14,980 nucleotides of DNA from positions 1 through 14,980 of the forward strand of contig JBHLOI010000074.1 in assembly GCA_048940645.1 (NCBI GenBank). Direction: 5' to 3'. The DNA is from Promethearchaeota archaeon (GTDB taxonomy: Archaea > Asgardarchaeota > Lokiarchaeia > Sigyniarchaeales > SOKP01). Both the position numbers and the translations under genes were made by a program. Position 1 is the first letter of the stretch. The number at the start of each line of letters is the position of its first letter. Positions 1,177 to 14,838 of this stretch are shown here, one piece after another. The notes under the pieces are model-generated. The model made no database searches, was not told the origin of the DNA, and worked only from the letters and a program-made list of their open reading frames with translations.

Positions 1177-2715
1177 TTATTTATCACTCTCTTTAATCTC
1201 TATACCATCTGGTAATGTAATTTTTGATACCGTTAAGCCCTCTGCTTTTTTATAATCATCAAATGTTCTAGATTCAACGATTTTTATAAAGTAAAGCAAT
1301 TCATTATCTAAATCTCTAGGTAATTCGTTAGGTTTATGAGCTTGAAGGATTTGGTCTACTTTTTCCCGTGCACGAGTTATGATATCTTTAGCACCTTTCT
1401 TATACCACGTAGTACGTCTACTTCGATCTAATAATTTAGGGAAGTACAATTCTGATTTCATGTGATCTCGAGTATGTTTTTCAGCTAAGAAATTAACTCC
1501 CTTTTTTTCACTGGTAGCAACTTTCTTAATAACATCCAATCCTATTGTGACCTCATTTACTGTAATTCCTTCAATTGCTCTTTGTACCATCCCGGCAAGT
1601 TCATCATCTATTACTAATAATTCCAAAGCTTCGACCAATGTGGCTTCATATGTTCCCGCACAAGTGATATAATTCACTCCTGCTTGGGCTGCTAACATTA
1701 AAGTTTGTAAGCGCTCAACTCCATTTTGCATATCTAGAACTTTAGAATCTGTACCACCACCAGGACCTCGTGAGGGAATATTGTAAAAACGTGCTAGCTG
1801 CGCAATTCCAGCTGTAATTAATCCCATTTCAGGAGAACCCATCGCAGAATTTCCAGTACGCATATCTGTTATATGAGATACAGTTCCAAAAAATATTGGA
1901 GCACCAGGATTAAATATTTGGGAAAGGACTATACTTCCAAGGATTTCAGCATTAGTTTGAGTCAATAATCCCGCTAATGTTACTGGGGCAGATGCGCCTG
2001 CAAGTGCCTCTGGTGCAATAATGGTTGGTTGTTTATATTTTGTGAAAATTGAAAAACCATTAGTCATGATTTGTGGCAGATGTAAAGGGCTTGTTGGATT
2101 CATAAATCCAACTAACCTAGGTCTTTTTATTAATTCCTCATCTCCACCAACGATCATTGATGTCATTTTCATCATGTCTGTGCTCGCTAATTTACCAAGG
2201 CAGCCCAATCCGTATGGTTTTTTAGTATTTTTCGCCCATTGATAAATACAATGGACATGAATAGTAATGTATGAAATATCATTAGGCCACACGTCAATAT
2301 GTGAACATAAAATATTCTCTAGAGAATCAACGATTTTTATTTGTTGAATAGTATCAGAAAAAAGAGTTTTTCTCACTCCCTTTTTCTGCATTGGATCATA
2401 AATCTTTACTGGAGTCCCAATAGTGGCAAAAATAGTATCTTTTGTGTTAACTTCAAAATTAAATTTTCCATTGGGACCATATAGTCTAAAATGATCTGGA
2501 ACTATTTTCAATTTTTCTCTTATTAGTGATTCTGAAAATTTAACAAATCCGCTTTCATTATCTACTTCAGCACCATTTTCTTTAAGAAGATTCCTTGTAT
2601 CTTGGGCATCAATTTTCATTCCGACATCTGTTAATAATTGTATGGATGCCGAATGGATTTCTTGGATTTCATCTTTTGAAAAAACTTCAATCTTTCTTAA
2701 TTTCATTTTTTTCAT
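1177..2715 (-). CDS. mttB: MttB-superfamily (trimethylamine methyltransferase family) corrinoid methyltransferase, non-pyrrolysine, paralog 1
   Basis: Family motifs FSKDEIQEIHSASIQLLTDVG, NPTSPL, AGASAPVTLAGLLTQTNAE, DMRTG..MGSPE, QLARFYNIPSR, TDSKVLDMQNGVE, LVIDDE. No in-frame TAG. The true start may be Met4 (2706), by comparison with paralog 2. Confidence 0.92.
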   Translation of the reverse strand: MKKMKLRKIEVFSKDEIQEIHSASIQLLTDVGMKIDAQDTRNLLKENGAEVDNESGFVKFSESLIREKLKIVPDHFRLYGPNGKFNFEVNTKDTIFATIGTPVKIYDPMQKKGVRKTLFSDTIQQIKIVDSLENILCSHIDVWPNDISYITIHVHCIYQWAKNTKKPYGLGCLGKLASTDMMKMTSMIVGGDEELIKRPRLVGFMNPTSPLHLPQIMTNGFSIFTKYKQPTIIAPEALAGASAPVTLAGLLTQTNAEILGSIVLSQIFNPGAPIFFGTVSHITDMRTGNSAMGSPEMGLITAGIAQLARFYNIPSRGPGGGTDSKVLDMQNGVERLQTLMLAAQAGVNYITCAGTYEATLVEALELLVIDDELAGMVQRAIEGITVNEVTIGLDVIKKVATSEKKGVNFLAEKHTRDHMKSELYFPKLLDRSRRTTWYKKGAKDIITRAREKVDQILQAHKPNELPRDLDNELLYFIKIVESRTFDDYKKAEGLTVSKITLPDGIEIKESDK

Positions 2716-2719
2716 CCTT

Positions 2720-3364
2720 TTATTTTATGATTAAATTATTAATAAGTTCTACCGCCTCAATTGCATCATCTGCCCAACCATCTGCACCAATTTGTTCTGC
2801 CCAATCTTCCGAAGTAGGTGCTCCGCCTACAACTACAATATATTTATCTCTTAAACCTCTATTTTTTAATTCTTCAATGACTTGTCTTTGAAAATCCATA
2901 GACATTGTAAGTAAAGAAGATAATCCTATAACGTGTGCTCCGACCTCTTCAGCTTTAGAGATAAATTCATCGGCTGTTACTTCTACCCCTAAATTGAATA
3001 CCTCAAATCCATTAGCAAATAGAAAGGATCCTACTAGATCTTTCCCAATACTATGAACATCGCTTTCCACAGTTCCAATTACAACTTTCCCTAATGTTTC
3101 TTTTTTTCCTCCTAATTTTCTAATAGCAGGGTCTAAAACCCCATCAATAGCATCCTTTACTGTATCAGCTGCACCAATTAAATCTGGAAGGAAGATATCT
3201 TCATTTTCAAATTGATTACCAATAAATTTCATGATATTCCCAATAATTTTTAATAACTCTTCAGGACTAGCACGTTCTTTATTAATTAAGGATTTACACA
3301 TTTCTTTTAGTCCTTCTTTATCCCAATCTTCTACAAATTGTTTCATTTCCTCTTCAATAGACAT
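2720..3364 (-). CDS. Cognate corrinoid (cobalamin-binding) protein, MttC/MtbC-like
   Basis: N-terminal helical cap (IGNQFENEDIFLPDLIGAAD), then GTVESDVHSIGKDLV (DxHxxG), GLSSLLT (SxL) and VVGGAP of the B12-binding domain. Its stop lies 4 nt before the mttB paralog 1 start. Confidence 0.93.
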   Translation of the reverse strand: MSIEEEMKQFVEDWDKEGLKEMCKSLINKERASPEELLKIIGNIMKFIGNQFENEDIFLPDLIGAADTVKDAIDGVLDPAIRKLGGKKETLGKVVIGTVESDVHSIGKDLVGSFLFANGFEVFNLGVEVTADEFISKAEEVGAHVIGLSSLLTMSMDFQRQVIEELKNRGLRDKYIVVVGGAPTSEDWAEQIGADGWADDAIEAVELINNLIIK

Positions 3365-3542
3365 ATATTATCCCTAAATTATTGCGAAATTAATTTATTA
3401 ATTAAATTAAGTATTTTAAAAAATTATTTGTTATTTTATATTTCCTATCTTTAATATCTATTATGAAAAATTAATAGAAATGATAAATTACATCAAATCA
3501 TATTTTATTTAATCAAATAAGACTTATTATTGAGATATTTTT
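3365..3542. promoter_or_regulatory. Divergent promoter region between the corrinoid-mttB1 and mttB2-lyase operons
   Basis: A 178-nt, very AT-rich gap between head-to-head start codons. It holds several TATA-like words, but none can be singled out. Confidence 0.5.
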
Positions 3543-5048
3543 ATGAATTTAAAGCAATTAGAAGTATTATCAAAAGATGAGATTGAGCTAATTCATTCAA
3601 ATACTCTAAATTTACTAGAAGAGATTGGGGTAAAAGTTGAATCCGATGAAGCACAGGAGTTATTGGAAGAAAATGGATGTGTATTAGCAGAGAATCATTT
3701 TATTAAGTTCCCAGAAAATCTTGTCAAAGAACAATTAAAAAAAGTCCCTCTACTATTTTCTTTATGGGGGCCAGATGAGTCATTTAGCTTTGAAGTTAAC
3801 ACAAAAGATACTGTTTTTGCAACGGTAGGTACTCCAGTAAAAATTTATGATCCCTCAATGAAAGGAGGAGTTCGTAAAACAATTTTAGAAGATACGATAA
3901 AACAAATACGTATAGTAGATAGTTTAAAAAACATAATGTGTTCACATGTAGATGTCTGGCCAAATGATATTCCATATTTAGAACTCCATTACCACACAAT
4001 TCGTGCATGGGCGAAAAACAGTTATAAGCCATATGGATTGGGTTGTTATGGAAGAGTTGCTTCCCAAGATATGATGAACCTAACATCTATTATTGTTGGG
4101 GGGGAAAAGGAGTTAATTAATAAACCAAGAATGATTGGGTTTTTTAATCCAACAAGTCCTCTAACGCTTACTAAGATTATGTTAAATGGGTTATTTATTT
4201 TTGCTAAGTATAAACAACCAACAATTATTGCTCCAGCTGCAAGTGCTGGATCGACAGCTCCGGTTACTTTAGCTGGATTATTAATACAATCCAATATGGA
4301 AACATTATCCTCGATTGTGTTGACACAGCTAATCAATCCTGGCGCACCAGTTCTTTATTCCACCATGAATGCCCCAATGGATCCTCCCACCGGGAATGTA
4401 GCTTGGGGATCTATAGAGACAGGTTTAATAACTGCAGGTGCAGCACAGTTAGCTCACTTTTATAATATTCCTTCAAGAGGTCCTGGAGCTGTAACCGAAT
4501 CAAAATGTTTTGACATTCAATGTGGATTTGAACGTTTTATGACCCTTTATTTGGCAGCTAATGCTGGAATTAATTATATTACATGTGCAGGTACTTATGA
4601 ATCCTCATTGGCAGAAGCGTTAGAATTATTAGTAATAGATGATGAGTTGATTGATATTGTAAAACGAGGGAGCAGTGGAATTAGAGTAGATGAGGAATCA
4701 TTAGCTATTAACGAGATTAAAAGAGTAGCGAAAGAAGGTAAAAATTATTTAATGTTGAAACATACTGCAAAAAACACTCGAAAGGAGATATTTGTGCCAA
4801 AACTAGTGGATCGAGATCGCCGGGGAATTTGGAGTAAAAATGGAAATAAAGATATTATAATGAGAGCTAGAGAAAAAGTTGATAAAATTCTTGAAACTCA
4901 AAATGGACCTGGGATTTCTTCAGAAATTGATGTCAAATTACAGGAGTATTATAAGCGAATTTGCTCTAGAACTTATGATGATTTTCGAAAAGCGGAAGGG
5001 ATGGAAAAATCAGATATTACCGAAGGGATAACAGGTTTGGAGGGATAA
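3543..5048 (+). CDS. mttB: MttB-superfamily corrinoid methyltransferase, non-pyrrolysine, paralog 2
   Basis: Same family motifs as paralog 1 (LSKDEIELIH, NPTSPL, APVTLAGLL, FYNIPSRGPG, ESKCFDIQCGFE, LVIDDE) and colinear with it over the full length. No in-frame TAG. Confidence 0.92.
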   Translation: MNLKQLEVLSKDEIELIHSNTLNLLEEIGVKVESDEAQELLEENGCVLAENHFIKFPENLVKEQLKKVPLLFSLWGPDESFSFEVNTKDTVFATVGTPVKIYDPSMKGGVRKTILEDTIKQIRIVDSLKNIMCSHVDVWPNDIPYLELHYHTIRAWAKNSYKPYGLGCYGRVASQDMMNLTSIIVGGEKELINKPRMIGFFNPTSPLTLTKIMLNGLFIFAKYKQPTIIAPAASAGSTAPVTLAGLLIQSNMETLSSIVLTQLINPGAPVLYSTMNAPMDPPTGNVAWGSIETGLITAGAAQLAHFYNIPSRGPGAVTESKCFDIQCGFERFMTLYLAANAGINYITCAGTYESSLAEALELLVIDDELIDIVKRGSSGIRVDEESLAINEIKRVAKEGKNYLMLKHTAKNTRKEIFVPKLVDRDRRGIWSKNGNKDIIMRAREKVDKILETQNGPGISSEIDVKLQEYYKRICSRTYDDFRKAEGMEKSDITEGITGLEG

Positions 5049-5050
5049 TC

Positions 5051-6331
5051 ATGGAAGAGGAAAAGAAAAAGACAATGGATGAAATAAATAAAGAATTACG
5101 GAAAGTATGGGATAATCAAAATTTTGATTCACAACAAATTAGAGCAGGGGAAGATCCATATCCTTCAACAGAAAATAGTCTTCGCTTACCAATTTATGCA
5201 ACTAAGTCTTATGTTTTTTCTTCTATGACAGAATTCTTGAAAAAGCATTACATCTATTCCAGAACTGAAAATCCGACTTTATATGCTCTAGATAAAAAAC
5301 TAGCTACATTACATGGTGGAGCTGATGCGGTATCCTTAGCATCAGGTATGGCAGCAATCCATCTTGTCTGTTCAAGTGTATTGCAACAAAGATTAAAAAG
5401 AATAAGACCTAAAAAGTTAGCAAAATATTACCCTCAGAGCCATCCAGAACAAATCCCAAATATTATTATGCATAAAAGCACATATACAGGAACGTATAGG
5501 CTTTTCATGAATCTATACCCTCAATTTGGGATAGAGCCTAAAATTATTGATATGAGAAACTTGGATAACGTAAAAGATGCAATAGATGACCAAACAAAGT
5601 TGATATTCATTGAAACTCCTGCTAACCCTACTCTTGATATAATTGATATTCAAAAATGCTCAGAGTTGATACATGATATAGGCGGAAAGTGTATTGTTGA
5701 TAATACATTTGCCTCACCAGCTTTACAAAAACCAATAGAATTAGGAGCAGATTTCGTTGTTGAAAGTTTAACAAAATACATAAATGGACATGGAGATGCT
5801 CTTGGTGGAGCGATAATTGGTCCCAAAAATGAATTACAGCATATAAGATATTTTTGGTTAGAAGTACAAGGACCTGTCCTAAGCCCTTTTAACGCTTGGC
5901 TTATTTTGAGAGGATGTAGAACATTAAGTGCTAGAATGGAACGTCATTGTTTAACAGCAATGAAAGTCGCTAAATTTTTAGAAAAACATCCCAAAGTAGC
6001 AAAGGTTGTTTATCCGGGATTAGAATCCCATCCTGAGCATGCTATTGCTAAAAAGCAAATGAAAGATTTTGGTGGAATGATTGGTTTTGAGTTAGATTCT
6101 ATGGATGCAAGTTATAAGTTTATAGATCTCCTAAAGTTTATTAAAGTGGGTGTTTCTCTAGGTGATACAACTTCGCTTATAGAATACACTTCTGTTATGA
6201 CCGGGTTTGATCTTGCCTCTTGGGAAAAGCAGATTATTCCTATTTCTGATGCACATTTTAGACTTTCTATTGGTTTAGAAGATGTCAATGATTTGATTAA
6301 GGATTTAGAACAAGCCCTTAATAAGTTGTAA
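5051..6331 (+). CDS. PLP-dependent Cys/Met-metabolism enzyme (methionine gamma-lyase / cystathionine lyase family), substrate uncertain
   Basis: YSRTENPT (YxRxxNPT), ASGMAAI, IETPANPT, VDNTFASP, ESLTKYINGHGD (PLP lysine), YPGLESHP, GVSLGD, FRLSIGLED. It starts 2 nt after the mttB2 stop. Confidence 0.9.
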   Translation: MEEEKKKTMDEINKELRKVWDNQNFDSQQIRAGEDPYPSTENSLRLPIYATKSYVFSSMTEFLKKHYIYSRTENPTLYALDKKLATLHGGADAVSLASGMAAIHLVCSSVLQQRLKRIRPKKLAKYYPQSHPEQIPNIIMHKSTYTGTYRLFMNLYPQFGIEPKIIDMRNLDNVKDAIDDQTKLIFIETPANPTLDIIDIQKCSELIHDIGGKCIVDNTFASPALQKPIELGADFVVESLTKYINGHGDALGGAIIGPKNELQHIRYFWLEVQGPVLSPFNAWLILRGCRTLSARMERHCLTAMKVAKFLEKHPKVAKVVYPGLESHPEHAIAKKQMKDFGGMIGFELDSMDASYKFIDLLKFIKVGVSLGDTTSLIEYTSVMTGFDLASWEKQIIPISDAHFRLSIGLEDVNDLIKDLEQALNKL

Positions 6332-6360
6332 TTTAAAAGAGTTATAAAAATAAAAAAAAG

Positions 6361-7734
6361 TTAATTAGAATTTATTCTTTTTTCTTTTTCTTTATGCAGT
6401 TCCATTAGTTTTGACTTTATTTCTTCTACTTTTGGTTTTGAAAATGGGTAGAAATATAAACATATCAACAAAATACCTAATGCTATACCAGGAATTACAA
6501 TAAATAGCAACCTTAGTCCGAATTTTACATCTATTAATGGATCATATACTTCCCAATCGCTTTGAACAAAGACTAAACCTATTGTTACAATTGATAAAAT
6601 CATTGATAATCTCATAAAAAAATTGGTTACTCCAAAAAATGTTCCCTCATGTCTCACACCTGTTTTTAACTCATCTTCGTCTATTACATCCGCTATAATT
6701 AAATAAATGAAATACAGCATACCACCAAATCCAATACCCATAAAAATAGCAATAACCACGGCAATTTCATATAGTTCAACAAACATTAGGGGCAATGAAG
6801 CTATAAAATACGCGACAACCGATATCGCTAAACCTTTTCTTGAACCAATTTTTAAATCCAACCATTTCCAAAGAATTACAGATAAAGCACCCATGATATA
6901 CATAATCCCCATTATAATAGATGTTTGAAAAGGGTCGCTGTCTAAAATTTGTTTCCCGAAGATTTGAATCAGTGTAGCAAGAAGTAAAAGCACATATTCA
7001 TAGAGAAAAAACATTATTGTATATAGGATAAAACCTTTATTCTTAAATGAATATTTTACACCTTCAAAGAATTTGAATGATTTTTGATAATCTAATTTAA
7101 ATTCTTTTCTTTCGGTTACTCCCCATTTTAATGAAATTATCAACGAAATTGCGACAATTATGGATGTTACTATTCCATTTAGTAAATATGAAGTGGTATC
7201 ATTATCAACAATAAAGCCTGGAACTAATGCTGCTGCTAATAGTCCTAATACTGCGAGCAATTGCTTAATTGTATTTACTTCAGACCTTTCTTCTAGAGTC
7301 GTATATAATTCAGGGAATAAACTATCAAATGGAAGAGCAATCATTGTATAAAATGTATCATAGCAAAGGAGCATAATGAGTAAATATATAAAAGTAAAAA
7401 ATTGATTGCCTGTTGGAGGGAGCCATATAATAATTTCTAGAATTAACATCGGAATAGTACCAAGCATAATATAAGGTTTTCTACGTCCCCATCGAGTTTT
7501 TGTACGATCTGATAAATATCCAATGAAAGGATCATTAAAAGCGTTCCATAATGTCCAAATTACTGCAGCAAGTACATACCAATTGATATTTAAGCCAACA
7601 ACAGTGAAATAATAGGTAAAAACCCAAATATTAAAAGCCGTGTTTATAAACCACTGAGCAAAGCTCCCCATTCCAAAACTCCATTTTTGTCCCTTACTGA
7701 ACCTAGACTTTTGATTACTTATTTCTTCACTCAT
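6361..7734 (-). CDS. MFS transporter, glycoside-pentoside-hexuronide (GPH/MelB-like) family
   Basis: About 12 hydrophobic segments, with WNAFNDPFIGYLSDRTKTRWGRRKPY, PELYTTLEERSEV and IIADVIDEDELKTGVRHEGTFFG, all GPH-type signatures. Confidence 0.9.
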   Translation of the reverse strand: MSEEISNQKSRFSKGQKWSFGMGSFAQWFINTAFNIWVFTYYFTVVGLNINWYVLAAVIWTLWNAFNDPFIGYLSDRTKTRWGRRKPYIMLGTIPMLILEIIIWLPPTGNQFFTFIYLLIMLLCYDTFYTMIALPFDSLFPELYTTLEERSEVNTIKQLLAVLGLLAAALVPGFIVDNDTTSYLLNGIVTSIIVAISLIISLKWGVTERKEFKLDYQKSFKFFEGVKYSFKNKGFILYTIMFFLYEYVLLLLATLIQIFGKQILDSDPFQTSIIMGIMYIMGALSVILWKWLDLKIGSRKGLAISVVAYFIASLPLMFVELYEIAVVIAIFMGIGFGGMLYFIYLIIADVIDEDELKTGVRHEGTFFGVTNFFMRLSMILSIVTIGLVFVQSDWEVYDPLIDVKFGLRLLFIVIPGIALGILLICLYFYPFSKPKVEEIKSKLMELHKEKEKRINSN

Positions 7735-7884
7735 CTTATTTCCCTAATTAAATTTAATATAAATTTCTTTTAAAATAGAAATATATATTTTATTTTCTAT
7801 TAACTAAAATAAATAGTTGATCATTTATGGACTTCAAAATTATCTGGAATAGTTTTAAATGGGTATTTTTAAACTTGTATAATA

Positions 7885-8097
7885 CTATTCCTTTGAATAC
7901 TTTTCAATTATATAATTTTGAAGAGACCATGCATACTTTTCAAGATTAAGAATAAGAAGTTTTTGTTGAATTTCCCTCAAGTATGGTACATCTAATTCTA
8001 AAAATAATTTTCTTAAATTATCAATTGTGTCATAAATTCTCACAATAATATTCCAATCTTGAGCCCATTCCTCATCTTGAATTTCGGTTTGTTCCAT
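7885..8097 (-). CDS. Small helical hypothetical protein, 70 aa
   Basis: A stand-alone ORF filling an intergenic gap, with an amphipathic helical pattern and a TTATAAAA TATA-like element about 22-29 nt upstream on the same strand. No family recognised. Confidence 0.7.
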   Translation of the reverse strand: MEQTEIQDEEWAQDWNIIVRIYDTIDNLRKLFLELDVPYLREIQQKLLILNLEKYAWSLQNYIIEKYSKE

Positions 8098-8212
8098 TTT
8101 GGTGTATAATGTAAATTATTTTATAATATGCCCATAAGATGGGGTTTTATGAATTTTATATCAATCCACATTAAAAAATGTTTAGATATTTATGATTTAG
8201 TAATTTTGAAAT

Positions 8213-9361
8213 CTAAAGATATAATTCGAAATTTTTTTCAATAATCTGTTGAGCTTTTTTAAATTCTGAAACGTTAATTAATCGATTTAAATCTTGAATT
8301 TCATTTAACTCATTTTCATAAAAAGTTCTAAAATCGTGTGAAAATTTTTGGATTATTCTCTCTAAAATTGCATTTTTTTTTGATGTAAGTACAACTACAG
8401 CGAATCCATAATCAATATCATAATCAACAACTATATCAGCTCCTCTTGTTTGAATTACATCTATTTTATCAGATTTATCTACAAATTCACTTAGAATATA
8501 ATTTAATCCAATGATAATATTACCCCATATCTTTAGGTTATTCAAAATATTTTCCTTTTTTTTGAAATTATAGGAATATAGGAGTACTCCAGACTTGTGG
8601 TAAATATTTACTGAGTAAATTTTGTTTGGTAAAATGAAAAACATTTCAGGTTTTAAAATTATCATTATATCGACTCCAAAATTTGTAATCCAGATTAAAA
8701 TGATAAAAAGTTCTCTATAAACTTGACCTTGTAAGATTATATAAAGTATATAAAAAATTATAGGAGCTGTAAAAATACTGGTGTTTAAAAAAAGTGGTAA
8801 ACTCTCTTTAGGATCTTCTGATTTTAAATACACATAAACTGAAATATATATAAGATAAATTGTAATGGATATTTGAAAGATAATAACAATTGCTCCTGTC
8901 AAAAAATTAAATTGATACTTAATTGTAGAAACTTCTATAATAGAAAAAGGAGGAGCTGGAGGAAAGTTAATAGAAATCAATATAGAATTAGGTAAAAATA
9001 AAGTTCCAATTAAAAGACCGAAAAGAATCGAAATCATTAACATTGGAATTATTTGAATTTTTCTATACTCTTTAAAAAATGAATACGTAAAGGATGTAAT
9101 TATTAAGGAAATGAAGCCAGAGATAACTAAAATTTTCCATAATATCAGATTTATTAGATTTGAAATAAAAAATACAACTGAAAGTAAGTAGCAACTGGAA
9201 AAAATAAATCCAGAATTAAGAACAATTCCAACATTCAAATAAGCAATAAGGTTCGTACCATATCGCTTTCGGTTTTTAATTATATAGAATACTGTAATAA
9301 AAGAAATTAATGAAATCAAAAAATATCCGAAGATTAATGAAATACTTACAAAATTATACAT
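8213..9361 (-). CDS. Seven-TM membrane protein with a C-terminal longin-like domain (paralog A)
   Basis: Seven hydrophobic segments in about residues 1-237, with a long loop after TM4. Residues 248-382 start IYSVNIYHKSGVLLYSYNF and follow the beta-beta-alpha-beta-beta-beta-alpha-alpha pattern of longin domains, ending EFKKAQQIIEKNF. Confidence 0.75.
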   Translation of the reverse strand: MYNFVSISLIFGYFLISLISFITVFYIIKNRKRYGTNLIAYLNVGIVLNSGFIFSSCYLLSVVFFISNLINLILWKILVISGFISLIITSFTYSFFKEYRKIQIIPMLMISILFGLLIGTLFLPNSILISINFPPAPPFSIIEVSTIKYQFNFLTGAIVIIFQISITIYLIYISVYVYLKSEDPKESLPLFLNTSIFTAPIIFYILYIILQGQVYRELFIILIWITNFGVDIMIILKPEMFFILPNKIYSVNIYHKSGVLLYSYNFKKKENILNNLKIWGNIIIGLNYILSEFVDKSDKIDVIQTRGADIVVDYDIDYGFAVVVLTSKKNAILERIIQKFSHDFRTFYENELNEIQDLNRLINVSEFKKAQQIIEKNFELYL

Positions 9362-9539
9362 TTTTCTATCTATAATATTTATAATTTATTTAATTTTACA
9401 TTTTGAGGTATTATTGAGATTTCTTAAGACTTATATTTTACTTTTTTTATACTTTTAAGATAGAAGATTTACTTATATATATGCATTTGGTTAAAATTAA
9501 TAAAGAGAATAGCCTTCTTAGAAAGAGAAGTTGTAATGA

Positions 9540-10640
9540 TTAAGCCTTGACAAAATATTTACTAAAACATTCTTGGAGCAATTTCCCAGTGTCTTTAAAT
9601 ACTGTTACATCGATTATTCCACTTAACTTTAGTAAATTCTCCTTGTTTTTATCTGAAAATATTTTAATAAATTTTTGTACTGCTTCTTCAAGAATCTTGT
9701 TTTTATGTTTAGCAATTAATAATATAGCATAGCCTAAATCATTTTGAAAATTAAATACAACTCCCTTATCACTCATTTTTATGTGATCTAATTGATCCTC
9801 AACTCCAGAAAAATTTGCAAGAATATGACTTATCCCTATTAAAATACTCCCCTTCAATAGGGATTCATCACCTTCTTTACGAGTTTGGAAATTATATGAA
9901 TAAAGTAAAATTCCAGACTTATGAAAGATTATAAAGTCAAAAATTTTATTTGTGAATACTAAAAATAGAGCAGGTTTTTTTATAATAATATATGATACAA
10001 TGCTACTATTAAGAATATATAAATTTATATATAATACCCTAAAAGTAATATTTTGTGTTATAAGAAAAATTGAATAGGTAATTATATTTAATGAAAGAAG
10101 AAAAATATAGGTTGAGAAGAAATTGGCTAAGTCTTTGTCATTAAAGTTCTTATAACCCATGATTTGTGATATATATAAAAAAGTGATAACAGCTGAATTG
10201 AATATGAGAAGAATACTTAACAGCTTTACATCTTGAAAGAAAAATAAATAATCGGTACCTTGTTGAACCGCCAGAAATGAGTTTGGAAATATAAGCAAAC
10301 TAACTATTATCCCTTCCAAGAAAAAGTAAATAATGACTGCTAAAAATCTTATTTTACTATGTTTATGTAATTCCACGCTATGGATAGAAGATAATAATCC
10401 TATTGAAAAAATTCTAATAAAGATTGATATTTCCCATAAAGTTTGGGAAATTTCTATTTTAAAATAATTTTCTACTGATAAGTTGAATAAAATAAAAGAT
10501 GAGGTTTGACCAATGAAATATATAAGAATTATTATTGCGAATCCAGTTTCTACTTCGTACTTTCCTCTAGCATAAATGCCATGAGTAATACCAATTAATA
10601 ATAGTAGCATCAAAATGCTAATATAAATAATTCCAATCAT
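9540..10640 (-). CDS. Seven-TM membrane protein with a C-terminal longin-like domain (paralog B)
   Basis: Seven hydrophobic segments, then residues 233-366 starting IFDFIIFHKSGILLYSYNF. It aligns to paralog A at LW in TM3, PNS after TM4, KP after TM7, HKSG(V/I)LLYSYNF, GxI(I/L)IG and KNxILExxxQKF. Confidence 0.75.
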   Translation of the reverse strand: MIGIIYISILMLLLLIGITHGIYARGKYEVETGFAIIILIYFIGQTSSFILFNLSVENYFKIEISQTLWEISIFIRIFSIGLLSSIHSVELHKHSKIRFLAVIIYFFLEGIIVSLLIFPNSFLAVQQGTDYLFFFQDVKLLSILLIFNSAVITFLYISQIMGYKNFNDKDLANFFSTYIFLLSLNIITYSIFLITQNITFRVLYINLYILNSSIVSYIIIKKPALFLVFTNKIFDFIIFHKSGILLYSYNFQTRKEGDESLLKGSILIGISHILANFSGVEDQLDHIKMSDKGVVFNFQNDLGYAILLIAKHKNKILEEAVQKFIKIFSDKNKENLLKLSGIIDVTVFKDTGKLLQECFSKYFVKA

Positions 10641-10743
10641 GAATAATTTTGGATCCCAATTAAATGATTATTAATCAACAAATTATATATTTTAAAATTA
10701 TATAAATTTTAGTTTATATATAATCCTTATAATTTAGTTCAAA

Positions 10744-11250
10744 CTAACTTGTCCTATCTCTAATCTTATTTTTTAGCCAACCTATTTTATCTATTTCTCT
10801 GAAATCAAATTGAGGGACATAAGGTTTTATATCCAATACGGGAGTCTTGTCTAAAATATCAATATTATTTACTCTAATTACATTTTTGTTAATCTCTGAA
10901 ATTTCTAATAATGACAATCCAATAGGATTTGGTCGAAAGGGAGTTCGTATAGAAAAAACACCTTTTAGTTCATTCTGCAGAAAAGGTTTAGATAACAATG
11001 GAACTGGTAATTTTACCATATCAAAAACATATAAACAATAGATATGTGAAAAACCCTCCAAATCCTTTAAACCATTTTGATATGCTGAAAAAAGTTCAAT
11101 CATACCTGACGTTTTTGACATAGTTGGTTGGATTGGTATCCCTTTTAGAGTTTTAAATGGAGAGTGAATAACTCCAATAGGTTTAAAGCAAATTTCTTCA
11201 GGAAATCTTCGTTCTGTAAAACTTTTTAGATTTCCATTAATTATTTCCAT
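10744..11250 (-). CDS. tsaA: TsaA/TrmO (YaeB)-family SAM-dependent methyltransferase, single-domain form
   Basis: FKPIGVIHSPF, GLKDLEGFSHIYCLYVFD, GVFSIRTPFRPNPIGLS and DKTPVLDIKPY are TrmO/TsaA motifs. The tRNA m6t6A37 activity is inferred from the family. Confidence 0.9.
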   Translation of the reverse strand: MEIINGNLKSFTERRFPEEICFKPIGVIHSPFKTLKGIPIQPTMSKTSGMIELFSAYQNGLKDLEGFSHIYCLYVFDMVKLPVPLLSKPFLQNELKGVFSIRTPFRPNPIGLSLLEISEINKNVIRVNNIDILDKTPVLDIKPYVPQFDFREIDKIGWLKNKIRDRTS

Positions 11251-11351
11251 AATTGTGGATTACTCTCTATTTAATAAAAAATTTTTTTCTTAATTTTTGA
11301 ATCTATTCTAATATAAGCAAACTTGTCTATTTATAAGTAAAAAAAGATCCT

Positions 11352-13262
11352 ATGAAAGAATTTATTGATTTTCTTAAAAATAAAGGGATAATCCAATATT
11401 TAATGAAGGTTTATAGTTTAGACCAGCAAAATTCAGATGAAAGTGACTTTATTTATGCAATAATTGAAGTATTTGCCCACTTAGAAAGTAATAAGAATTT
11501 TGGCCATAAAGATATTCAAAAGGGTGGAATAGATATCATTGGAAATATATATGAGAGCAAAATTTCTAATACACAAAAGAAAAGATTGGGTGAATTTTAC
11601 ACACCGTCTCATGTCGTAAAATATATATTAAGTGCTGTTGGATACAGTATGGATAATGAAATAGAAGGGAAAAAAATAGTTGATCTTAGTTGTGGATGTG
11701 GAAGTTTTCTTATTCAAATTGTTAAAATTATAATGAATTTTTATGTTAAGAAATTTGATTTAAGAAGTTTATCTGATATTTCAATTGATCAGGCTAGAAT
11801 TATAATTAGAAAAATTCAAGAAAATGTTTTCGGCTTTGACGTAAATCCTGTTGCCTGTGTTTTATGTTGCATAAATCTCTACTTTTCGTTTTATGAATTA
11901 CTTAAGATTATTAATATGTGTGATGATAATTTTAAAATACCAGATTTAAAAATTATTAACGTTAATATCATTGATTATTCTAATTTCGATAGATTTGACT
12001 ATGTGGTAGGAAATCCTCCCTACTTATTTTTAAGGGATATACGCCCAGATGATAAACTCTTAATTGAACAAGGAAACTTTAAAACTATTAAAGGTCAATA
12101 TGATTATTATCAAATTTTTATTGAATTGGGCATTGGTGTTTTAAAGGAAAAGGGTCTTTTAGGCTATATCCTTCCAGATTCTCTCTTAGCTCTGTCAAAT
12201 CGAAAATTGATTAGAAAATTTATATTTAATAGAACCAAAATCAGAGAATTATACTATATTGGCCCAAGTTTTGAGGACCCGATTGTTTCAAATGTTATAA
12301 TAATTTTACAAAAAGAAAGAGACGAAGAAGAGAGACTTAGAAATTTAATATCAATAAATAATCCATTAATTAACAGCGGATTAAATATTCCTATCAAGCA
12401 ATCCACCCTTAAAGAGTGGGAATATAAGTTTTTAATAAATATTAACGAGGTTGACATCAAAATTCTTGAATATCTTAATTCCAATTTCCCAAAAATTAAA
12501 AATATCATGCAAAATCCAGAGTATAAAATTTTAATTTTTAGAGGTGTAGAATTAGGAAAAGAGGGAGCAATAGCTTATTGTAAAAAATGTAAGAAATATG
12601 TTCCCCTTCCCAAGAAAAAAGCAATATGTAAAGATTGTAATTCATTTTTGGATTTACATATTATAGAGAAAATTATTGATGACAAAATTCCTAAAGGATT
12701 AGAGGAAAATTACAAACCATTCCTATTTTCAATGAATAGATACCAAGTAAAACGATACAAATATATTAACATCAAAAAAATAGGAATCAACTACAAAAAT
12801 ATAGAGGATTATAAAAATAGAATTGTTATACGACAGCTAAGTCAAAATAACTTATTATGTGCTACTTATGATAAGGAATCTTTAACTTCTCAATCATTTT
12901 ATAATTTAAAAATTATCAAGTCTCCTATAACAGAATTTAATCATTTTTATGTATTAGGCTTAATAAATTCTCAATTATTATCTTATTATTTTATTAAGAT
13001 TTTTGGTTCTTATAAGAAGTTATTTCCTAGAATTCTTATTGAAAAAGTTAAAAATTTACCAATAAAGTTACCTAAATCACCTAAGGAACTACTAATTTCC
13101 AAAAGTATTCAAGAAAAGGTTAGGGACATTTTATCACTTAATGATTTAAATAATAAAGAGATTGATATCTTACAAAATGATATTGATTCTTTAGTTTTCA
13201 ATATATATCAGATTTCACATAAAAATAAACAATATATTTTAAAATTCTTAAGAAATTTATGA
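11352..13262 (+). CDS. N6-adenine DNA methyltransferase, gamma class (TaqI/Eco57I-like), with a C-terminal target-recognition region
   Basis: GEFYTP (motif X), DLSCGCGSFL (motif I), GFDVNP, FDYVVGNPPY (motif IV), FIELG..LKEKGLLGYILP, and C-terminal TaqI_C-like YVLGLINSQLLSYYF and KNLPIKLP. Only about 80 residues precede motif X, too few for a nuclease domain. Confidence 0.88.
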   Translation: MKEFIDFLKNKGIIQYLMKVYSLDQQNSDESDFIYAIIEVFAHLESNKNFGHKDIQKGGIDIIGNIYESKISNTQKKRLGEFYTPSHVVKYILSAVGYSMDNEIEGKKIVDLSCGCGSFLIQIVKIIMNFYVKKFDLRSLSDISIDQARIIIRKIQENVFGFDVNPVACVLCCINLYFSFYELLKIINMCDDNFKIPDLKIINVNIIDYSNFDRFDYVVGNPPYLFLRDIRPDDKLLIEQGNFKTIKGQYDYYQIFIELGIGVLKEKGLLGYILPDSLLALSNRKLIRKFIFNRTKIRELYYIGPSFEDPIVSNVIIILQKERDEEERLRNLISINNPLINSGLNIPIKQSTLKEWEYKFLININEVDIKILEYLNSNFPKIKNIMQNPEYKILIFRGVELGKEGAIAYCKKCKKYVPLPKKKAICKDCNSFLDLHIIEKIIDDKIPKGLEENYKPFLFSMNRYQVKRYKYINIKKIGINYKNIEDYKNRIVIRQLSQNNLLCATYDKESLTSQSFYNLKIIKSPITEFNHFYVLGLINSQLLSYYFIKIFGSYKKLFPRILIEKVKNLPIKLPKSPKELLISKSIQEKVRDILSLNDLNNKEIDILQNDIDSLVFNIYQISHKNKQYILKFLRNL

Positions 13263-13863: not shown

Positions 13864-14838
13864 ATGGAAAGCCTTCCAAATATTAATCTCATTACTACAC
13901 TATTGAAAAACTATATGTATGAAGTTGATGGAGCTGTAGCTGTTGCGCTCTGTGATAGAGATGGTTTTATTATAGCTTCTGAAAGTAAAAAGAAAGAAGA
14001 TCAAGACTCAGATTCTGTTATAGGTGCAATTTCAGCATTTTTAGATATTTATATCGATAGAATAAAAAGTGAATATCAGACTCAAAGTAATTTTTTTAAT
14101 ATAACCTCATTACAAAACAGAAAATTCGCATATTGTTCAATGGGGCATCACTCCATTCTGACTACTATTGCTGATCCATCAACTTCCGATGTTGAGCTAA
14201 AGGTTTATTCTGAACATATTGCAGGTAAAATTGAGATGCTATTAGAAGGTAATCAAAATGTCTCAATTAAAATTCCAGAAATAATTAGAGTGTTATCTAA
14301 AAGAAGAGAAGGAAAATTACCGAAAGGTCAATTTACAGCTAAATTAATACTAACTGGAGATTTTAAAGTAGGTAAAACTTCTTTAATTCGAAGATTTGTG
14401 GAGAATAACTTTAAAGAGGATTACCAAAGTACGATAGGTGTGGAAATTTCTAAGAAATCTATTATTATGGATGAGAATACCAAGTTGAATTTTGTTTTAT
14501 GGGATATAGGTGGACAGATAGGTCAAATTAGACCTTACAGGCAAAGATTTTATGAAGGTGCCAATGCTGCATTTATAGTAGTTGATAGAACGCGGGATCA
14601 TCTAGATAGTATTAATAATTGGCTTGATGATATTAAAAAATCTGTTCCAAATAATATCCCAATTGTTATTGTAGGCAATAAATCGGATTTAAATGAACAA
14701 ATTGTTATTACAGAAGAACAGATTAAAGTTATCGCAAAACAGTTCGATCTTCATTTCATAGTGACAAGTGCTAAAACGGGTGAAAACGTCAATGAAGCAT
14801 TCCTTTATATCGCTTATAGATTTATAGAAAAAGTGTAA
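13864..14838 (+). CDS. Roadblock/LC7 (MglB-like) domain fused to a Rab-like small GTPase
   Basis: N-terminal VDGAVAVALCDRDGFIIAS roadblock signature (about residues 1-130). GTPase motifs: G1 GDFKVGKTS, G2 STIGVE, G3 WDIGGQ, G4 NKSD, G5 SAK, plus RabF-like IGVEI and FYEGA. No C-terminal cysteine for prenylation. Confidence 0.9.
   Translation: MESLPNINLITTLLKNYMYEVDGAVAVALCDRDGFIIASESKKKEDQDSDSVIGAISAFLDIYIDRIKSEYQTQSNFFNITSLQNRKFAYCSMGHHSILTTIADPSTSDVELKVYSEHIAGKIEMLLEGNQNVSIKIPEIIRVLSKRREGKLPKGQFTAKLILTGDFKVGKTSLIRRFVENNFKEDYQSTIGVEISKKSIIMDENTKLNFVLWDIGGQIGQIRPYRQRFYEGANAAFIVVDRTRDHLDSINNWLDDIKKSVPNNIPIVIVGNKSDLNEQIVITEEQIKVIAKQFDLHFIVTSAKTGENVNEAFLYIAYRFIEKV

Follow-up and report, generated by a model that had tools for sequence, protein, structure and literature searches.

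Small GTPases and proteins of the longin or roadblock type occur by the dozen in Asgard archaea, and how membrane recruitment and switching are achieved among them is the question. The locus described here raises it in a concrete and assayable form. The window (the whole stretch of DNA that was analysed, 14,980 nucleotides, positions 1 to 14,980 of contig JBHLOI010000074.1 in the Promethearchaeota archaeon assembly GCA_048940645.1) contains two adjacent genes, A and B, each for a protein with a seven-transmembrane (7TM) membrane half followed by a soluble longin tail, offering two small soluble tails and a handful of nearby candidate GTPases as an entry point. We found that this tandem 7TM-longin gene pair is real and conserved. 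As to its role, the reading we favour, tentatively and with slightly less than even confidence, is that each protein may be a receptor-style membrane module and that the paired longin tails may dock a small GTPase.

Two neighbouring genes encode paralogous 7TM-longin proteins

Genes A and B are co-oriented neighbours with B upstream of A (Table 1), and both open reading frames (ORFs) are present, adjacent and on the minus strand, as in an earlier sequence-only reading of the window. The intergenic gap is 178 bp, compared with 30-163 bp at the loci of four relatives. A has 262 homologs at E <= 1e-3 (best E 1e-198), nearly all exactly 382 aa long, from which we conclude that A and B are genuine genes and not chance ORFs; in relatives, the gene immediately upstream of A is a B ortholog of 364-372 aa. 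In the public annotation A is called at 368 aa (96% coverage), 14 residues short of the ORF, and the longer start is preferable because nearly all A orthologs have 382 aa and Met1 is conserved. BLASTP identifies A and B as paralogs, with E 5e-32 and 31% identity along 287 aa. Their membrane halves share 21% identity and their soluble halves 33%, a trend repeated among orthologs, so that the greater divergence noted previously for the membrane halves is borne out. No usable Pfam family was found for A or B, the sole match being a chance-level Hol_Tox. A promoter and terminator scan of 7700-11400, run with a bacterial consensus, returned 34 promoter-like sites vs 30.7 expected.

Table 1. Positions of the gene pair, its domains and neighbouring features in the window.
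Feature	Positions	Strand	Size, evidence
Gene A, 7TM-longin protein	8213..9361	(-)	382 aa; ORF and translation
Gene B, paralogous 7TM-longin protein	9540..10640	(-)	366 aa; ORF and translation
A membrane half, aa 1-236	8654..9361	(-)	Seven helices; helix 4-5 loop with beta-hairpin
A cytoplasmic longin domain (predicted), aa 248-382	8216..8620	(-)	AlphaFold2 model; structure and profile searches
B membrane half, aa 1-220	9981..10640	(-)	Seven hydrophobic segments; hydropathy and charge bias only
B cytoplasmic longin domain (predicted), aa 233-366	9543..9944	(-)	33% identity to A domain; same profile family
Ras/Rab-like GTPase with ~150-aa N-terminal extension	13864..14838	(+)	Pfam Ras E 9e-38
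Conserved acidic helical ORF downstream of A	7885..8097	(-)	70 aa; 70-74-aa gene at same place in four relatives

A Kyte-Doolittle scan found seven hydrophobic segments in each protein, in agreement with the earlier count by hand. For A, a full-length AlphaFold2 model built with 49 orthologs (predicted local distance difference test, pLDDT, 77.9; predicted template modelling score, pTM, 0.70) also has seven helices (residues 4-34, 37-63, 68-94, 104-121, 153-180, 184-210, and 213-236), with a beta-hairpin in the 30-residue loop that joins helix 4 to helix 5, then a short linker, and a C-terminal b-b-a-b-b-b-a-a domain of lower confidence. A structure model was made for A only; the helix number and orientation of B come from hydropathy and charge bias. 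All six basic loop motifs lie where they had been seen, after transmembrane helices (TM) 1, 3, and 5 (KNRKRY, KEYRK, and KSEDPK in A; RGKYE, HKHSKIR, and KNFNDK in B). In the A family (49 sequences) the loops after TM1, TM3, and TM5 contain a mean of 9.1 Lys and Arg residues vs 1.9 in the others, and in the B family (28 sequences) 7.5 vs 2.8. This positive-inside bias across the orthologs indicates an N-out/C-in topology for both families, as had been proposed, and the large outer loop 2 expected between TM4 and TM5 is that which holds the hairpin in the A model.

The membrane half has a receptor-like shape

What kind of membrane protein is this? Foldseek searches with the full-length A model gave only matches at E > 1e-3, both G protein-coupled receptors (GPCRs) and longins, and we consequently judged the domains by VIA-align and by a separate model of the C-terminal domain. 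In the comparison of the predicted A membrane half with solved chains, the top 50 VIA-align rows were all of GPCR fold (Z 14.3-16.7; root-mean-square deviation, rmsd, 3.1-4.6; 200-229 residues aligned), to be read with the program's own caveat that helical bundles attain Z ~13-14 from their common arrangement. The ESM Atlas neighbours of A residues 1-240 included HisKA_7TM clusters (TM by query 0.67-0.77), in which 62-78% of the members bear that domain; the HisKA_7TM feature score of 0.85 for the A membrane half in the same resource we treat as a lead only. Sequence models, on the other hand, recognized nothing: Pfam 7tm_1/2/3 and relatives had no match at E <= 1 in A, B, or 57 relatives, the HisKA_7TM model (PF16927) had none in the same proteins, and over the whole genome the latter gave only two sub-threshold matches, both away from A and B. 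The likeness to GPCRs and to HisKA_7TM in the sequence-only reading therefore holds for the predicted structure of A and fails by sequence models. As the Z-scores are near the level of helical bundles and a sequence match is lacking, we describe the membrane half as receptor-like in shape and do not claim homology.

Microbial rhodopsins were also considered. Helix 7 (A 213-236; B 202-220) has no lysine, the only Lys lying past the end of the helix, from which we conclude that the proteins are not rhodopsins; none appeared among the top 50 structural rows for the A membrane half.

If its shape carried no signal, the seven-helix bundle might merely hold a longin platform at the membrane, with no sensing, in the manner of lysosomal Ragulator or of SRX/SR-beta. 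It is consistent with such a passive anchor that the membrane half is poorly conserved (the 21% identity above, and only about nine columns common to the A and B families at >= 70%) next to a conserved longin half, and that no ligand site can be named. However, one or two helices suffice for anchoring, and such short forms exist in the family; genuine sensor modules (PAS-HisKA and MFS) bear this tail too (see below); and among the A orthologs cytoplasmic loop 2 is invariant, as are the in-membrane residues S61, W75, P106, G115, G119, Y207, and W224. We consider a passive anchor unlikely, while counting it among the alternatives to be taken seriously.

The C-terminal tail is predicted to be a longin domain

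In both proteins the soluble domain of ~135 residues opens with an HKSG(I/V)LLYSYNF hairpin, as the earlier reading had noticed. The A tail was modelled alone with AlphaFold2 from 100 sequences obtained by an exhaustive profile search (pLDDT 82.4, pTM 0.77). According to DSSP, the order of elements is b-b-a-b-b-b-a-a with no N-terminal helix in both AlphaFold2 models, the elements in the tail model being E9-16, E21-26, H40-54, E62-65, E70-76, E81-87, and H92-108, with further helices after these. When the tail model was compared with 48,161 solved chains by VIA-align, the first 41 rows were all longins (Z 13.2-9.2 over 110-134 residues). Matches comprised Sec22 (Z 13.2, rmsd 2.5 over 119 aa), VAMP7 (Z 12.7), SRX (Z 11.8, rmsd 2.8), synbindin (Z 11.6, 18% identity), CPLANE (Z 11.4), the Lokiarchaeal longin 8yqg and Bet5 (each Z 10.8), Mon1-Ccz1 (Z about 10), and the GATOR1 and FLCN chains (Z 9.6-9.7). 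Roadblock domains reached Z 8.6-9.1 over 95-103 residues and covered model residues 5-115 at most; the predicted tail fits solved longins better, and over the whole domain. Foldseek was concordant, with longins and roadblocks at E 2.7e-4 to 5e-3 for the same model. The longin fold proposed in the sequence-only reading is thus upheld by modelling.

In sequence the domain leans toward the longins of TRAPP. The best match of the family profile among the sequences of the Protein Data Bank (PDB) was yeast Trs23 (E 0.003), aligned from the first hairpin through helix 1; TRAPPC1 and Bet5 ranked lower. Pfam searches of the 57 relatives matched Sybindin in three (best E 0.019), Intu_longin_1 in two (best E 9.6e-5), and Fuz_longin_1 and SRP-alpha_N in one each. 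The cut-off of Sybindin (PF04099, 25 bits) was not reached: A and B had no match, and an MFS-longin paralog scored 15.1 bits. The B tail belongs to the same profile family as the A tail (E 2.7e-37 in a profile search of the genome itself). On the strength of the model, we conclude that the A tail is a longin domain, with a leaning to the TRAPP type that lies below curated family thresholds.

A longin need not act on a GTPase. The tail may instead bind a helical peptide, as do SNARE longins and AP sigma, or gate a transporter- or channel-like membrane module; the structural search ranks highest SNARE longins and AP/COPI small subunits, neither of which acts on GTPases, and many family members are fused to MFS transporters. 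Against this stand the nearest sequence matches, which are the longins Trs23 and Bet5 from the core of a guanine nucleotide exchange factor (GEF), the enrichment of GTPase genes near family members (including a longin-Ras gene pair only 194 bp apart, see below), and a membrane half that, in the structure search, looks like receptors and not like known 7TM transporters. We regard a tail without a GTPase as improbable.

It was also necessary to ask whether the longin pair might stimulate GTP hydrolysis, as a GTPase-activating protein (GAP), in the way of FLCN-FNIP, the NPRL2-NPRL3 pair of GATOR1, and C9orf72-SMCR8, rather than nucleotide exchange. GATOR1 and FLCN chains are among the structural matches listed above, and Liu et al. 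(bioRxiv 10.1101/2020.10.19.343400) name many Asgard longins fused to two-component domains "NPRL2-like." GAP-type longins (FLCN, NPRL2, SMCR8) have a GP motif where strand 2 begins, together with an arginine finger (PMC12290439). In A and B, the invariant Gly of the hairpin is followed by I or V, and in the family by I, L, V, or M, never by Pro; likewise, there is no column in which Arg reaches >= 50% for A as well as for B, and none in the family of 100 sequences. The absence of both features makes a GAP of the FLCN/NPRL2/SMCR8 type very improbable, and we rejected it; a platform or exchange role like that of TRAPP or Mon1-Ccz1 would fit better.

The pair is conserved within one family, and its tails may dimerize

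Distribution was examined in 201 genomes spread evenly over the phylum, 40 of them from the window's own family (f1) and 161 from elsewhere. A was matched in 38 of the 40 f1 genomes vs one of the 161 others, and in that one by the tail only. Among the 39 f1 genomes with a match (the window's genome included), 33, from eight genera, carry B and A on the same strand with B immediately upstream; of the remainder, two have A and B on separate short contigs and four, all of genus g4, have a single copy. The sequence-only reading had staked its proposal in part on conservation of the tandem pair, which holds in this Loki-class family and not in the 161 genomes outside it, where the B-A pair was not found. 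The homologs of A carry the metagenome-assembled genome (MAG) labels Promethearchaeota, Hermod-, Hod-, Thor-, or Lokiarchaeota, and most representative genomes with A bear the title Promethearchaeota or Promethearchaeia (the Loki class). A differently labelled record, DATKTW010000123.1 ("Candidatus Nanopelagicaceae bacterium"), contains an ortholog with 51% identity to this otherwise Asgard-only protein, and the MAG is probably mislabelled or contaminated.

In a tree of 100 longin tails, A and B form one clade of 27 sequences, all of them 7TM proteins (SH-aLRT 100), within which the A sub-clade (support 97) and the B sub-clade (93) are sisters, an arrangement that indicates a duplication in the ancestor of family f1. 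More distant 7TM-longin genes are single, and single-copy genes are found in genus g4, in sister family f2, and as P0237 and P0202. Genome G147 has another tandem pair (C13:2563-4793, minus strand), in which both 7TM-longin genes are full-length and distantly related to A and B, the A/B-type gene being single-copy there; pairing of 7TM-longin genes thus recurs and seems to have arisen more than once. Genome G183 has a third A/B-type copy (C24:6667-10696), 2 kb from an ortholog of the window's GTPase, with its A-B pair on another contig (C71).

Do the two tails pair with one another? The complex prediction for the two tails scored 0.38, the best control 0.01, and the result was graded "weak support"; the mark it passed is attained by 58 of 80 solved complexes and two of 110 mismatched pairs, and the scores <= 0.60 that pass it come from only seven of the 80 solved complexes and from both passing mismatches. 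The runs agree in >= 66% of contacts, with partner pLDDT >= 70. As longin dimers have already been solved, the pass may reflect the predictor's memory of them. The A-B longin interface suggested previously is therefore weakly favored by the prediction, and the heterodimer is not separated from homodimers.

These results bear on the possibility that A and B are two separate receptors, homodimers or monomers with different ligands, that are adjacent only through tandem duplication. The strong divergence of the membrane halves is what a switch to another ligand would lead one to expect, 7TM-longin genes commonly occur singly elsewhere (those listed above), and the tail complex test is weak, with homodimers outside its reach. 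Yet the B-then-A order is fixed in the 33 genomes of eight genera, two distinct and well-supported ortholog clades have both been retained, and tandem pairs recur independently. Two independent receptors are, like the passive anchor, unlikely in our view but worth keeping in play, and we continue with the reading that the longin tails pair and dock a GTPase.

The longin subfamily is used in a modular, output-like fashion

The exhaustive profile search found 1,735 cluster representatives of this longin subfamily at E <= 1e-3 and 453 at E <= 1e-10. In the best 148 members the longin is always C-terminal; it follows 6-7 helices in 55 and 10-12 helices in 30, the other contexts being long soluble regions, 1-3 helices, or nothing before the longin. 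Pfam identified MFS_1 in 18 of 42 long members, PAS in 12, HisKA in nine, HATPase_c in five, and a receiver domain in two. The genome of the window has 24-26 members of the subfamily, including one MFS-like fusion and two PAS-HisKA fusions, the latter matched by the same profile (E 1e-46) and placed in the same tail tree as A and B. The subfamily is thus used in modular fashion, as an output domain would be.

The MFS-like fusion is a 543-aa protein (C19:36006-37643, plus strand) with 10-12 helices, a weak MFS_1 match, and the same longin at its end, a layout that recalls a transporter-like sensor. C85:24300-26300 and C36:37825-39351 (both minus strand) encode the PAS-HisKA(-HATPase)-longin proteins, whose longins fall in the same subfamily; a divergent Arf/Ras-like GTPase gene lies upstream on the same strand in each case, at 3.0 kb (C85) and 1.35 kb (C36).

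A proposed link to small GTPases

According to the reading we favour, A and B would be one-component, 7TM receptor-like membrane proteins in which an N-out/C-in seven-helix input is joined to a longin in place of a kinase or cyclase output. The longin tails of A and B would form a dimer under the membrane, in the way that TRAPP C1/C4 or Mon1-Ccz1 do; this dimer, a platform for docking and exchange, would draw a small Ras/Rab/Arf-like GTPase to the membrane; and the state of the 7TM bundles would modulate binding of the GTPase. Each element of the scheme, that is, dimerization, GTPase binding, exchange-factor activity, and control by a ligand, is one that we infer.

The genome, which has roughly 90 small GTPases, offers some evidence for a connection. 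A Ras/Arf-like GTPase ORF lies within 5 kb of 10 of the 24 subfamily ORFs vs 4.9 +/- 2.0 of random places (P ~0.015), an approximately two-fold excess from one genome in which A and B were counted separately and three distance cut-offs were read; Pfam confirms the GTPase identity of these neighbours. Both kinase-longin genes are among the ten. In one case (C48:1533-2736, minus strand) a gene for a stand-alone 157-aa longin is 194 bp from that for a 180-aa Ras-family GTPase on the same strand. The two are likely a two-gene unit and may be the simplest system for longin-GTPase binding tests.

The window has a GTPase of its own (Table 1), with a weak match to MAPKK1_Int (roadblock-type) at aa 11-50, and an ortholog of it lies 2-13 kb from the pair in six genera. 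This GTPase is a candidate client of A and B, a link that would be inferential, and a single neighbouring GTPase is weak evidence for it.

Besides the limits of the neighbour count just given, several points weigh against the favoured reading. The GTPase gene of the window is 3.2 kb from B on the opposite strand, with genes for TrmO and a DNA methyltransferase and two tiny ORFs between, and it is never in an operon with the A-B pair. The linkage is lost in genus g4, and the sister family f2 has orthologs of the GTPase where the pair was not found. A block of at least 15 kb around the pair is syntenic in relatives, such that proximity of GTPase and pair may only reflect relatedness. With regard to the proteins themselves, the membrane half matches no receptor-family sequence model in A, B, or the 57 relatives, and its Z of 14-17 is only modestly above the helical-bundle background; the tail-tail prediction is weak and does not distinguish an A-B dimer from A-A or B-B. 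Lastly, the exchange activity of TRAPP also requires Bet3-type subunits.

A dedicated link between the pair and the neighbouring GTPase is not established, given the wider syntenic block, the loss in g4, and the f2 GTPase without the pair. We therefore hold apart a stronger proposal that is close to that of the sequence-only reading, namely that A and B together constitute a receptor, obligately heterodimeric, in which the paired longins are a ligand-controlled exchange platform for a dedicated GTPase, e.g., the roadblock-Rab-like neighbour 3 kb away. This we consider quite unlikely. If true, it would represent an archaeal one-step receptor-GEF, a functional parallel to GPCR-G-alpha signalling, and a membrane-bound forerunner of Rab activation of the TRAPP or Mon1-Ccz1 type. 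The more general reading, that the tails dock a small GTPase, would have consequences of its own: if the tails act on a GTPase, then membrane-to-GTPase signalling via longin dimers predates eukaryotes, and longins are a general Asgard output module for prokaryote-type sensors (7TM, MFS, and PAS-kinase). If they do not, the family still shows the free shuffling of "eukaryotic" folds onto bacterial-style scaffolds. It may also be relevant that the layout of Asgard genomes rarely pairs a GTPase with its regulator (Tran et al., 2024, PMC10933270).

Comparison with known systems

The closest parallel in layout is to prokaryotic 7TM sensors, including the 7TMR-DISM and 7TMR-HD families that Anantharaman and Aravind reportedly described in 2003. 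As in HisKA_7TM kinases and 7TM-GGDEF proteins, A and B have a seven-helix N-out/C-in input with one output domain directly after helix 7, but that output is a longin and not the kinase, cyclase, or phosphodiesterase of HisKA_7TM-type receptors. Our best reading of what is new is therefore a prokaryotic 7TM sensor with a fused output, the output here being a longin.

From the side of the tail, the nearest comparison is to the longin-heterodimer cores of eukaryotic GEFs. TRAPP Bet5/Trs23 (TRAPPC1/C4) and Mon1-Ccz1 have the same fold as the predicted tail (Z 10-11.6), Trs23 is the best sequence match with the hairpin motif in common, and here too two paralogous longins are encoded together. However, the eukaryotic proteins are soluble and peripheral and have no 7TM fusion. 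In the SRP receptor, the SRX longin of SR-alpha binds the small GTPase SR-beta at the membrane, and SRX is similar to the A tail (see above); there it is the GTPase SR-beta that holds the membrane anchor, whereas in A and B it is the longin protein.

The joining of a receptor-like seven-helix module to a putative GTPase-regulatory domain on the cytoplasmic tail is reminiscent of 7TM-RGS proteins, such as plant AtRGS1; 7TM-RGS proteins are also said to occur in Naegleria. Theirs is an RGS box, a GAP on G-alpha, while A and B have a longin without GAP motifs, and to our knowledge archaea do not have heterotrimeric G proteins (G-alpha/beta/gamma). Eukaryotic GPCRs share with the A model the arrangement of helices and a beta-hairpin in outer loop 2 and would share, on our proposal, the principle that a receptor is coupled to exchange of the nucleotide on a GTPase; in sequence, A and B show no similarity to them and give no Pfam 7tm match.

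The sequence-only reading had allowed that the architecture might already be catalogued. For kinase-longin fusions this is so: Liu et al. (bioRxiv 10.1101/2020.10.19.343400; Nature 2021) reported Asgard longins fused to two-component signalling domains, and the PAS-HisKA-longin paralogs of our genome are comparable fusions of the same longin subfamily as A and B. The text of that work has kinase-type fusions and no 7TM or MFS fusions or tandem pairs. In the literature texts that could be searched we found no description of 7TM-longin or MFS-longin fusions or of the tandem pair, and the 7TM-longin fusion is thus apparently undescribed; a 2026 preprint lists Asgard 7TM/GPCR-like clusters.

Neighbouring genes

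On the far side of A, positions 1177-7734 of the window encode two MttB-family methyltransferases, a corrinoid protein, a Cys/Met PLP (pyridoxal phosphate) enzyme, and an MFS_2 transporter. This flank is syntenic with the 7TM-longin pair in relatives, and for that reason the conserved neighbourhood says little on function. Closer to A, most relatives have a gene for an RDD-family membrane protein of 177-186 aa, missing in the window, between A and the acidic helical ORF of Table 1.

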